Below are positions 23,067 to 26,208 of a stretch of 64,000 bases of DNA, in pieces. Source of the stretch: Shigella phage JK32; sequence record MK962753.1; one strand, 5' to 3'. The translations under genes and the position numbers were made by a program. The notes under the pieces were generated by a model. That model had not been told where the DNA came from. It did not search any database and saw only the letters and a program-made list of their open reading frames with translations. Every line of letters starts with the position of its first letter. Position 1 is the first letter of the stretch.

Positions 23067-23100
23067 TAATTTCTCCTGTTTGGTTTAACTTTCTGATTCC

Positions 23101-23129
23101 ATAATATAGCCCTATCACCAGAAAGTCAA
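23101..23129 (-). promoter_or_regulatory. Sigma70-type promoter (TTGACT-17-TATTAT)
   Basis: Reverse strand TTGACT ttctggtgatagggcta TATTAT upstream of SLT gene. Confidence 0.45.
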
Positions 23130-23151
23130 GCATTAATTTAACCAATTTCCA

Positions 23152-23574
23152 TTATTGGTCCACTTTCAAAACAACAGCCGACATTTTACCCGCCAGTCGT
23201 TTTGGATTCTCTATAATCATTCGACAGCATAGACCGTGATATGGCTTACCGTCTTCAATTAGGTCTACTGTCATCCCGATCCACATGTTACCGTCAGTAA
23301 TTTCTAATCGATTAGGTCGGTCTTCCATTTTCAGGAAGTCGAAGATCTCCGGCAAACGAGTCTCTACCTTATTGAATAGTTCCATTGTCTTATGTTCATC
23401 AATATGACGGTCGGTTAATCTGTCGATCATATGCGGACTAAAGCGAATGAAAATATACTCACCGTAACCATCATTCAAGCACTTTTCTTTGATCTGCGCA
23501 TTGGTTTTGCGCATTTCGGTTTCGAAGAATCTACGCAGCTTACTACGGCGAACGTGTACATTAATTGTTTCCAT
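23152..23574 (-). CDS. regB: RegB endoribonuclease
   Basis: METINVHVRRSKLRRFFETE...RLEITDGNMW...CRMIIENPKRLAGK collinear with recalled T4 RegB; track ORF over-extended to 23646. Confidence 0.8.
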   Translation of the reverse strand: METINVHVRRSKLRRFFETEMRKTNAQIKEKCLNDGYGEYIFIRFSPHMIDRLTDRHIDEHKTMELFNKVETRLPEIFDFLKMEDRPNRLEITDGNMWIGMTVDLIEDGKPYHGLCCRMIIENPKRLAGKMSAVVLKVDQ

Positions 23575-23575
23575 T

Positions 23576-23914
23576 TTATTCTCCTTTCTTAAACAAATTG
23601 CGAAGCCAGTATACAAACGGGATTTCTTTAAACTTGAACTTGTCAATAGTTAATTCTTTAGTAGCAAGATGAATACCATAAGCATCATGTGTCACGATAT
23701 GCCATTTTCTATAGTCCAAATGTGAACAACCGTCTGAATCTAGGTTAATAATAGTTTCTCGCTCACTAGGATTGTTTTTCCACAATTTTGTAATCGGATC
23801 ACACATAATTCGACCTAGCGTACCATGAATAATCTCACAACGGTAAAGTTTTCCGGCAGTGATATAGGCACACCCGTCATAGTCGGTATAAACAAACACT
23901 TCTTTAACACTCAT
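23576..23914 (-). CDS. Hypothetical protein, member of a tandem triplet paralogue family
   Basis: ITAGKLYRCE...DSDGCSHLDYRKWHIV pattern shared with next two ORFs. Confidence 0.5.
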   Translation of the reverse strand: MSVKEVFVYTDYDGCAYITAGKLYRCEIIHGTLGRIMCDPITKLWKNNPSERETIINLDSDGCSHLDYRKWHIVTHDAYGIHLATKELTIDKFKFKEIPFVYWLRNLFKKGE

Positions 23915-23946
23915 TTTTAATACTCCTTTGTTGTGTCGATGGGGGT

Positions 23947-23975
23947 ATATTACTACCCCCGATCATGGGTGTCAA
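23947..23975 (-). promoter_or_regulatory. Sigma70-type early promoter (TTGACA-17-TAATAT)
   Basis: Reverse strand TTGACA cccatgatcgggggtag TAATAT; hairpin gggggta/taccccc. Confidence 0.5.
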
Positions 23976-24236
23976 CTACTTTTTCAAGAATTTTTTAATT
24001 GCGTTCCAAAGACCTTTATTCTCAGGCTGTTTTGGTTCTTCGATCAGTGTCCACGGACGGTCGTCAAGATATGCACAGCTTTTCAGAGAAATAAAAAGTT
24101 TGTATCCTTTATCATCTTTGATGTAACCGTAGGTAGACATTCTTTCATCTGGCGTAAACTTATACAGTTTATTTGGGGTGATGTAAGATCTACTACTATA
24201 AGGTGTCATTACATATTTCATGGTACTAACTCCCAT
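23976..24236 (-). CDS. Hypothetical protein, triplet paralogue
   Basis: ITPNKLYKFTP...GYIKDDKGYKLFISL. Confidence 0.5.
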   Translation of the reverse strand: MGVSTMKYVMTPYSSRSYITPNKLYKFTPDERMSTYGYIKDDKGYKLFISLKSCAYLDDRPWTLIEEPKQPENKGLWNAIKKFLKK

Positions 24237-24412
24237 TTATCACCGCGAAGATGAGAACATCCACCATCAAGAAGGATCGTAATACGAAACCCCGCATCAT
24301 CTTCAATATACCCGATAGTCGGTGGATGTTCGTCGTCTCGTGCCGGGGTAAAATCATACATCTTACCAGGCGTAATATCTTGTCCTTTATTGCTATTGGT
24401 ATAAACTTGCAT
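24218..24412 (-). CDS. Hypothetical protein, triplet paralogue
   Basis: ITPGKMYDFTP...GYIEDDAGFRITILLDGGCSHL. Confidence 0.5.
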   Translation of the reverse strand: MQVYTNSNKGQDITPGKMYDFTPARDDEHPPTIGYIEDDAGFRITILLDGGCSHLRGDKWELVP

Positions 24413-24433
24413 TTTCTTAATCTCCTATATTAA

Positions 24434-25132
24434 CTAACCACGGGTATAGTGTTCCAGAACAACTGTCAGATGAATATATTCTAATAGATCTTTCCAAAAG
24501 TCAACATCTGGTTCTTCCGGCATACCGTTTTTCTTTGCCTCTTCACGCGCGAGTTTAACACGTTCGTAGAGATCTTTCAATTCTTCCCGCACATTATCAA
24601 ATGTTCTTTCTCCTAACTTACACGCTAAAATAGAAGAACGTCGCGCGAGCGGGAATTGTAGATCACCAGTTTGATAGATTTCAAGTAGCTGATAACCAAC
24701 ACGCAGAGCATGAGAAAGATCTTTCCAGTTACTGAAATATTTTTCAGATTTGACTACCTGCTTTTTGAGATAACCAGACAAACCCCACATACCAACATGA
24801 TAGAATTTATCGCGATGTGTTCGGATGTATTCCCATTCTCTGGAGGATTCAATCAACATGTTACTAGGCGCGTGCACCATATCAATAGCGCCGATATCAC
24901 CTTTACATGCCAGATTGATAAACCGTTTTAGACTGAACATATTAACATCAATATCGTCTTTGGTGTTCTTGATACCTTGACCGCTAGTGCTTTGGTCATA
25001 GTGTTCTTTCATCGATCCTAAGATAATTTCTTTCGCAGTCGGAACAAAGATACCACGATAATCTTTATCTGAATTTTCAGTATCAAGACCGTATAAGTGA
25101 GATCCGAAGACCATTTTAACCATTGTATGCAT
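24434..25132 (-). CDS. Predicted nucleotidyltransferase (Pol-beta superfamily)
   Basis: FGSHLYGLDTENSDKDYRGIF fits GS-x(9-13)-DxD signature. Confidence 0.6.
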   Translation of the reverse strand: MHTMVKMVFGSHLYGLDTENSDKDYRGIFVPTAKEIILGSMKEHYDQSTSGQGIKNTKDDIDVNMFSLKRFINLACKGDIGAIDMVHAPSNMLIESSREWEYIRTHRDKFYHVGMWGLSGYLKKQVVKSEKYFSNWKDLSHALRVGYQLLEIYQTGDLQFPLARRSSILACKLGERTFDNVREELKDLYERVKLAREEAKKNGMPEEPDVDFWKDLLEYIHLTVVLEHYTRG

Positions 25133-25150
25133 AATTAAACCCTCATGTTA

Positions 25151-25744
25151 TTAAACGTATTCAGCAACAACATTATGTTTAAAATTACCGCTCATTTTTG
25201 GATTTGGATTTTTCAATCGACTATGTATTAAATTTTTGTTGTATCCGGTTGCTTTAGACGCTTCGCCAATACTTTGATAAACAACACCATTAACACGAAT
25301 CGGACGAGACTTATTAAACAGTTTATTCAATCCGGCATCATATGCATGGTTTTGGTTTTCTTGTCTCGTTGCGATCTCAAGATTCCAAACACAATTACAA
25401 GATTTTACCCCACTTTTATGATTAATTTCAAGCCCTTCACAATCACCTATAAAGTGTTCAGCGACTAGTCTATGAATATAGCGATATTTCTTAGTTTCCC
25501 CGTCATGCAAGCATACATTATAATAACCATCACCAGCGCGTTTAGGTCGGAGTAGTTTACCTTTAACACGTTTTATAGTAGGGAACTCACCAAATTGATT
25601 TCGCTGGACAAACGAAATCTCGCGGTCTAATGAACGGATTCGACCATAGTTAGACACTTGATAAAAACTTTCATAGCCTTTAATTGGCTTCCATATCTCA
25701 GGGATTTCTACACCATCAATAACAACAAGTTTAAATTCTTCCAT
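25151..25744 (-). CDS. HNH homing endonuclease (NUMOD4 + HNH)
   Basis: YQVSNYGRIRS (NUMOD4-like); HRLVAEHF ... INHKSG ... NLEIATRQEN (HNH). Confidence 0.75.
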   Translation of the reverse strand: MEEFKLVVIDGVEIPEIWKPIKGYESFYQVSNYGRIRSLDREISFVQRNQFGEFPTIKRVKGKLLRPKRAGDGYYNVCLHDGETKKYRYIHRLVAEHFIGDCEGLEINHKSGVKSCNCVWNLEIATRQENQNHAYDAGLNKLFNKSRPIRVNGVVYQSIGEASKATGYNKNLIHSRLKNPNPKMSGNFKHNVVAEYV

Positions 25745-25794: not shown

Positions 25795-26208
25795 TTACAT
25801 AGATTCCGTAAAGGTACGGGTGATGATATCAAGTTGTTGTTCGCGTGTCAAGGCGTTGAATCGGGTAGCATAACCACTGATTCTAATAGTCAGTTGTGGG
25901 TATTTTTCAGGATTTTCTAACGCATCAAGAAGAGTTTCCCGACGCAGCACGTTCGCGTTGAGATGATGACCAGCGTTACTATTTACCCCGTTATCAATTG
26001 CTACAGGACGGAAGCTAGTTGTGTGTAGTGCCAGCGAATCGACGTCTTCTGCGGTGATCACATGGTCTTCTGCGAAAGTTTTACTAACAATTACTTTAGC
26101 GCCGATCAGTGCTTTCGGTTCGGATACCAGAATCATAGGCGCGAAATGTCCACCGATAATAGTACCTTTATGCTCACCTTTCATGATTTGAATTGCTTTA
26201 AATTCCAT
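25795..26208 (-). CDS. grcA: Autonomous glycyl radical cofactor (GrcA/YfiD-like)
   Basis: [56 protein letters not shown] is near-collinear with recalled E. coli GrcA C-terminus. Confidence 0.85.

Follow-up and report, generated by a model that had tools for sequence, protein, structure and literature searches.

Three small genes upstream of regB in an RB49-like phage as probable diverged copies of one beta-barrel domain

Introduction

In phage T4, the slot between regB and vs.6 holds three small genes, vs.3, vs.4 and vs.5, and the anti-CBASS sponge protein Acb2 has been described as similar to T4 Vs.4 (PMC10419184, review). The DNA analysed here, a stretch of 64,000 nt (hereafter, the window), belongs to a Krischvirus, an RB49-like T4-type coliphage, and carries three consecutive small ORFs upstream of regB, the products of which are referred to as P1, P2 and P3. 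According to the original prediction, these ORFs form a paralogous triplet diversifying by duplication in the region where T4 carries small vs.x genes, and they possibly encode small-molecule- or nucleic-acid-binding proteins. The locus raises the question of whether the three genes are copies of one gene and whether their position indicates what they do. Paralogous ORFans are expected in the hyperplastic region of a T4-type phage and, taken alone, bear on no open question. If the triplet were pursued, at least 176 protein clusters for which there is no Pfam or NCBIfam model could be named as a family and assigned a confident fold and a domain boundary.

Gene organisation and paralogy

As predicted, three consecutive ORFs were found on the minus strand upstream of regB. 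P3 (24218..24412, minus strand; 64 aa) is followed by P2 (23976..24221, minus strand) and P1 (23576..23914, minus strand; 112 aa). The gene upstream of P3, at a distance of 21 nt, encodes an nrdC.11-like nucleotidyltransferase of the RlaP family (24434..25132, minus strand). The gene downstream of P1 encodes the endoribonuclease RegB (23152..23574, minus strand), which was recognised by annotations in related phages and by PF10715 on its orthologue. A GrcA-like glycyl-radical gene, the homologue of T4 vs.6, is located further upstream of the triplet (25795-26208, minus strand), and vs.1, vs and a macro-domain gene are located beyond regB, further downstream.

A ribosome-binding site containing GGAG was present ahead of each of the three genes; in the case of P3, this is the Shine-Dalgarno sequence TAGGAGA, 9 nt upstream. 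The predicted sizes of 112 and 64 aa were retained for P1 and P3, but the predicted size of P2, 86 aa, was revised. The P2 ORF as listed spans 23976-24236, and its sixth codon is an ATG at 24221, which overlaps the P3 stop codon as ATGA and has GGAG 8 nt upstream. Because of this overlap and GGAG sequence, and because P2 is annotated in its 81-aa form in GEC-3S and is matched by the phrog_15978 profile (E=5e-43) from residue 6 of the longer reading, P2 most likely starts at ATG 24221 and comprises 81 aa, in preference to the 86-aa reading with its start at 24236. At the other end of the triplet, a single nucleotide separates the P1 stop codon TAA from the ATG of regB, and AAGGAG (23581..23586, minus strand), which serves regB as a Shine-Dalgarno sequence and was read directly from the DNA, lies inside the last P1 codons, within K-G-E. 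In G2248 (L015 1801-2136) and in 011D4, the orthologue of P1 bears the label 'putative endoribonuclease RegB'; since P1 has no similarity to RegB, this label seems to have been carried over from the adjacent gene.

A lack of significant pairwise similarity had been named beforehand as the outcome that would speak against duplication. In BLASTP comparisons, the similarity was significant for every pair: P2 and P3 were 45% identical over 51 aa (E=3e-13), and P1 was 33-34% identical to P2 (E=7e-6) and to P3 (E=9e-6). All three proteins also matched an independent profile, phrog_6261 (E=5e-37 for P1, 3e-5 for P2 and 2e-29 for P3). The claim of duplication thus held, and that of a common motif held in part. 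The motif was complete only in P2 and P3; P1 kept IT.GK.Y, C.HL and the Trp but carried an insertion in place of F.P...GYI.DD.G. Exactly three copies of the domain, P1, P2 and P3, were detected by the family HMM in the 64-kb window. It is very probable that P1, P2 and P3 are products of real protein-coding genes and are three diverged paralogues of one beta-barrel domain of ~60 residues, belonging to the widespread PHROG 6261/15978 family of uncharacterised phage proteins.

The three copies differ in what is added to the domain. P3 is the bare domain, with an acidic pI of 4.6, and represents the canonical form of the family. P2 consists of the domain and a basic amphipathic C-terminal tail, EEPKQPENKGLWNAIKKFLKK, and has a pI of 9.5. 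In P1 (pI 7.7), the domain contains an insertion of ~10 residues and is followed by a basic C-terminal extension of 36 aa.

The triplet was found to be a regular part of the genomes of RB49 relatives. The region 23100-25200 matched 58 phage records with 90-99% nucleotide identity, all of them RB49 relatives, and the 2.1-kb region with the triplet was present in 58/58 of these Krischvirus records. When the family consensus was used in tblastn, three family matches per genome were obtained in nearly all sampled records; a relative from a gut metagenome likewise carried the region.

The wider family

An exhaustive HMMER search of 1.84 billion cluster representatives (E<=1e-3) yielded a family of 176 representatives of 50%-identity clusters, to which P1, P2 and P3 were all linked. 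Most members were stand-alone proteins of 58-75 aa. An earlier word-indexed search had retrieved close relatives only, and a second word-indexed homologue search provided few additions. The consensus of the family is MKVKTDY.GC.YITAGK.YEV...GYI.DD.GD.I.I.L..CAHL.G..WEVVE. Among 80 aligned family members, 74 matched phrog_6261 and 69 matched phrog_15978, and no function is assigned to either profile. P1 and P3 matched phrog_6261 end to end, and the best match of P2 was phrog_15978; the two profiles represent the same family as the triplet, which PHROGs splits in two.

Other resources gave no match to the family. In Pfam at E<=1, no match was obtained for P1 and P2, and P3 gave only a match at 0.23 to the unrelated MGP3_C. 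Neither Pfam nor NCBIfam provided a meaningful model for P1-P3 or for the distant and fused family members tested, and none of the PADLOC defence models matched P1-P3 or five other family members. A profile search of PDB sequences returned noise (E>=0.12), and no match came from a search of the literature with the locus tags of RB49, the protein accessions and the PHROG numbers. The top match of the exhaustive search, P0023 (5033 aa, 42 stretches), was rejected as an artefact, being an unrelated repeat protein of giant size whose match is confined to profile positions 38-62. In two database proteins, P0021 and P0017, the first 28-36 residues of P1 were joined to unrelated sequence, which in P0021 continues as MraZ-like (PF02381); these are probably chimeric or frameshifted metagenome assemblies.

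The family was detected by tblastn with the consensus in 133 phage records, which comprised Krischvirus, Vibrio phages of ~138 kb and Drexlerviridae, and a scan with a 13-sequence alignment found 8 viral loci. No family locus was found in GTDB genomes by a pattern-based scan that needs near-exact peptide matches and is therefore weak evidence for absence from bacteria. Everywhere it was examined, the family gene sat among runs of small unannotated genes, and on one contig, such a run lay beside RecT, SSB and DUF3310. In its contexts elsewhere, the family was invariably surrounded by arrayed small genes of early or accessory type.

Multiplication of the domain was also seen outside the triplet. 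Two adjacent copies were present in each of the loci L005 and L008, and in Drexlerviridae, a short member was directly followed by a longer one with an N-terminal domain (BFVD A0A4Y5NU81). In P0029, P0030 and P0034, the domain occurred two or three times within a single chain. In a PHROG scan, the C-terminal partner regions of other family members matched only PHROG families of unknown function. In five of these proteins (P0041, P0049, P0063, P0095 and P0112), the domain was fused to a C-terminal region that recurs among them, carries the motif TWGEMTDAEKGALLLA and corresponds to phrog_13152 (unknown function). Judging from these sequences, the phrog_13152 region is a second uncharacterised phage domain repeatedly paired with the family.

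Predicted structure

The structure of P3 was modelled with AF2 from the 80-sequence alignment, with a mean pLDDT of 96.4 and a pTM of 0.82. The model contains strands at residues 2-4, 18-22, 33-37, 43-47 and 61-63 and a 3-10 turn at residues 53-55. The P3-type domain is thus predicted to be a small beta-barrel with SH3-like topology. In the P1 model (overall pLDDT 75.5), the core was confident and the insertion (residues 41-50) and the tail (residues 77-112) were poor.

A Foldseek search of the PDB with the model gave nothing below E=0.68, and no solved structures resembled the model beyond generic SH3 domains; structural matches in BFVD were uncharacterised phage proteins only. None of the profiles of the SH3 families defined by sequence (Pfam SH3_1 to SH3_n and bacterial SH3) matched. 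One further small barrel was considered as a possible family member and rejected. Gp54 of phage Bas11 (PDB 9axb), a six-stranded barrel whose native function is unknown, acts as a trigger of the defence protein CapRelSJ46 (PMC11578894). Gp54 shows only 6% identity and a different strand count, and in PaulSarasin, a phage related to Bas11, the family member is bas09_0082, a different gene from Gp54. Gp54 was therefore treated as an analogue only.

In the 80-sequence alignment, Y19 and W60 were invariant, and T14, K17, I36, D39, G41 and L55 were strongly conserved. Three loops were variable, namely the first one, that at 23-32 and the distal one. As mapped from the SH3 topology rather than from measured distances, the conserved positions would mostly belong to the core, to turns or to the 3-10 helix.

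Expression and allele replacement

The spacer between P2 and P1 (23941..23975, minus strand) contains a composite element, which was found by a promoter scan and a motif search. It consists of a sigma-70 promoter (TTGACA at 23975-23970, a 17-nt spacer and TAATAT at 23952-23947, minus strand) and a GGGGGTA/TACCCCC stem-loop at 23960-23941 that overlaps the promoter. The promoter is also annotated in GEC-3S. In RB49 and phi1, a class of elements termed PeSLs, in which TTGACA-N17-TATAAT is combined with a Gn-loop-Cn stem, has been described and proposed to mediate ORFan shuffling (PMC2839356; PMC4122927). The element at 23975-23941 combines a near-consensus promoter with a Gn/Cn stem-loop, is intergenic and lies in a variable region, and in these features, it matches the PeSL class. 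The locus resembles the ORFan cassettes of RB49 and phi1 (Arbiol et al. 2010; Comeau et al. 2014) in that a promoter with a G5-loop-C5 stem stands beside small genes that differ between near-identical phages. Unlike those cassettes, which are flanked by PeSLs, the triplet has only one PeSL, and on its downstream side, the P1 cassette is bordered within the P1 coding sequence and not at a second PeSL. Neither regB nor the triplet locus is mentioned in the searched text of the two PeSL papers.

Four such PeSL-like elements were found in the window by motif search. The other three, at ~12916, ~31482 and ~33295 (minus strand), share the pattern TTGACA-N17-TA...T overlapping a G4-5/C4-5 stem-loop, and the stem-loop at ~33295 is almost the same as that in the P2/P1 spacer.

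The promoter scan found no strong promoter between nrdC.11 and P3. P3 and P2, translationally coupled through ATGA, would thus follow nrdC.11 in expression, and P1 would be expressed, apparently together with regB, from its own early sigma-70 promoter inside the PeSL. These arrangements suggest that P1-P3 are produced early.

The variability of the triplet was studied by comparing the window with six related genomes. The flanking proteins NrdC.11, RegB, Vs.1, Vs and Macro were 96-99.6% identical to those of the window (97-99% for RegB), and the corresponding identities were 94-97% for P1, 69-78% for P2 and 81-98% for P3. In addition, a replacement allele of P1 (103 aa) with only 41% identity was found in the same slot and in the same gene order on Krischvirus contigs from Hadza gut metagenomes. 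In a 60-nt profile of nucleotide identity, the P2 core (~24240-24060) showed 68-81% identity in all three comparisons, and the P1 region (~23940-23650) showed 35-53% identity with the metagenome relative only. For this relative, identity was back to 96% over the last ~21 codons of P1 and regB, and the borders were sharp. The sequence encoded by the last 21 codons of P1 (23579-23641, minus strand), KFKFKEIPFVYWLRNLFKKGE, was identical in the 112-aa allele and the 41%-identical 103-aa allele. This tail is either functionally fixed or held by the translation-initiation region of regB, in which case it marks the recombination border.

The dN/dS ratios were 0.12 for P1, 0.16 for P2 and 0.26 for P3 versus 0.03 for regB and nrdC.11. 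The triplet is therefore constrained, but less tightly than its neighbours. Classical positive selection was rejected because dN/dS was below 0.7 in every pair and 0.12-0.26 overall. The dS between the P2 allele of the window and the others was 0.7-1.6, far above that of the flanks, which indicates that the P2 of the window is probably an old allele brought in by recombination. Diversification by duplication, as originally proposed, was thus borne out insofar as the genes are diverged duplicates. However, dN/dS was well below 1, and the present variation arises mainly from the swapping of old alleles by recombination. We consider it probable that change at the locus comes from recombination, by which cassettes adjacent to the PeSL are replaced, and not from point-mutational positive selection, and the locus would provide a clean example of such replacement beside a PeSL.

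Several other observations concern the triplet and its surroundings. On a metagenome scaffold (L026 45-296), an 83-aa chimera, P0004, combines the N-terminus of P3 with the C-terminus of P2, joined at GYI.DD, and is followed by P1 and regB. It could result from unequal crossing-over between paralogues or from assembly collapse, and it was not counted as proof of crossing-over because it lies 45 nt from the contig end and was seen in a single sample. Between nrdC.11 and the GrcA-like gene, the window contains an HNH homing endonuclease gene (25151-25744, minus strand), which is absent from this site in GEC-3S, G2248 and KMB43 and is 96% identical in FL04. In JSE and the gut-metagenome relative, this site is occupied by another HNH gene, with 26-28% identity. 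Occupation of one site by such different HNH genes suggests independent invasions. The GrcA-like gene, which is 51% identical to that of T4, is another variable spot, with 80-88% identity among Krischviruses versus 97-99% for its neighbours.

Possible functions

Ordinary though well defined, the three accessory genes belong to a large uncharacterised family. On balance, the findings are best explained if P1-P3 are diverged copies of a domain that serve as early accessory binding modules in a recombination hot spot, and this explanation is favoured, if not strongly. As to the mode of action, we tentatively propose that the proteins are non-enzymatic and non-essential and act as stand-alone modules that bind host or phage macromolecules. 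This proposal was reached by elimination and by analogy with other small phage early proteins. A target is indicated neither by an annotated homologue nor by a conserved neighbour or a fusion to a domain of known function.

With such binding modules, T14, K17, Y19, I36, DD.G, C52.H54L and W60 would build the barrel, the turns and the 3-10 helix. Target specificity would be set by the loops that vary between paralogues and alleles, namely the RT-like, n-Src-like and distal ones. The copies would have been sub- or neo-functionalised, P3 as the acidic domain alone, P2 through its basic amphipathic tail and P1 through its loop insertion and 36-aa tail. A precedent for such action of the acidic family members may be provided by CarS, the antirepressor of Myxococcus, an SH3-like protein that is likewise small and acidic and acts solely through binding to another protein; the likeness to CarS is an analogy only. 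With three paralogues that differ in charge and tails, discrete allele classes and a tractable coliphage, the triplet would be a convenient natural experiment.

A bolder form of the binding proposal, considered less probable, is that the family is a new class of counter-defence or host-takeover binders. Its members would be minimal SH3-like barrels that block a host sensor or enzyme, kept in several copies that are either adjacent or joined in a single chain, and entire alleles would be exchanged by recombination to track variable targets in the host. If this were true, each of the three Krischvirus copies would be directed at a target of its own, and together they would take over the function of the vs.3-vs.5 block of T4.

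It is unlikely that the proteins are RNA-binding helpers of RegB or of early mRNA processing, with P1, and perhaps P2, binding RNA or ribosomal protein S1 and modulating the cleavage by RegB at GGAG. Such a role would be consistent with the direct joining of P1 to regB, the Shine-Dalgarno sequence of which lies within P1 codons, with the retention of the same 21 C-terminal residues and junction by the 41%-identical P1 allele, and with the basic character of P2 and of both tails. However, conservation of the P1 C-terminus is equally explained by a constraint on regB translation initiation together with the position of the recombination breakpoint. Moreover, the family occurs in Drexlerviridae and Vibrio phages that have no annotated regB in the context, and the T4 regions searched (1-90 kb and 148-169 kb) contain regB but no family member (best E 0.42). 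Finally, most of the family is acidic (the median pI is 4.64, and 72% of the values are below 5), and this acidity argues against general nucleic-acid binding, which thus seems disfavoured.

It is also doubtful, and slightly more so, that the proteins are anti-defence sponges, that is, oligomers that sequester immune signalling nucleotides as Acb2, Tad1 and Tad2 do. This possibility is suggested by the shared slot. The predicted position was confirmed, since the Krischvirus triplet, between nrdC.11/vs.6 and regB, fills the slot that corresponds to that of vs.3, vs.4 and vs.5, likewise three small early genes between vs.6/GrcA and regB. The small size of the proteins, their apparently early expression and the mosaic accessory locus with allele swapping would also suit sponges. 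However, the relation to Acb2 or other sponges received no support from BLASTP, hhalign or Pfam. In BLASTP of P1-P3 against T4 Vs.3, Vs.4 and Vs.5, nothing was found below E=1 (the best match, to Vs.4, had E=1.1 over 8 residues), and hhalign of the 80-sequence family profile against Vs.4 gave a probability of 0.5%. Homologues of vs.3, vs.4 and vs.5 were not found in the window by tblastn at E<=1e-2. On these results, the correspondence between T4 and Krischvirus is positional only, as expected in a hyperplastic region. For Tad2-type sponges, which we take to be DUF2829 proteins, no Pfam domain match was obtained in P1 or P2 at E<=1, and none that was relevant was obtained in P3. The only solved structures like the model, generic SH3 domains, do not favour a sponge either. 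A common position in a hyperplastic region is not evidence of a common function, since such regions collect unrelated ORFans (PMC2839356). A tempting inference is thereby corrected: these genes are not Acb2-like merely because they occupy the slot that Acb2 has in T4.

It is very improbable that the family is one of small proteins that bind metal or have a redox or catalytic activity through Cys-x-His, in some members with an additional Cys of the RT-like loop. In the 80-sequence alignment, Cys52 was present in 93% and His54 in 85% of members, and this near-invariance could mean metal binding or catalysis instead of a structural role; an extra Cys in the first (RT-like) loop was found in about one-third of members, including P1. 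However, Tyr replaces the His in the P2 of the window, P2 and P3 have no loop Cys, and the potential ligands number at most three and are not conserved together. A barrel of 60 residues without a partner to form a pocket is an unlikely enzyme. An enzymatic role is thus unconvincing because the proteins are too small and the Cys/His positions too variable.

The reading of the ORFs as chance ORFs or decaying pseudogenes that yield no protein, which their shortness, their 'hypothetical protein' labels and a truncated P3 in one genome might suggest, is effectively already refuted by the dN/dS values, the good Shine-Dalgarno sequences and ATGA coupling, the retention of the region by all 58 matching genomes, the many distant homologues found in the exhaustive family search and the AF2 confidence of 96. 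The truncated P3 is that of FL04 (L017 1376-1501), where it is annotated as a 41-aa ORF and the tblastn match is in two pieces; this split may be due to a frameshift or a sequencing error.
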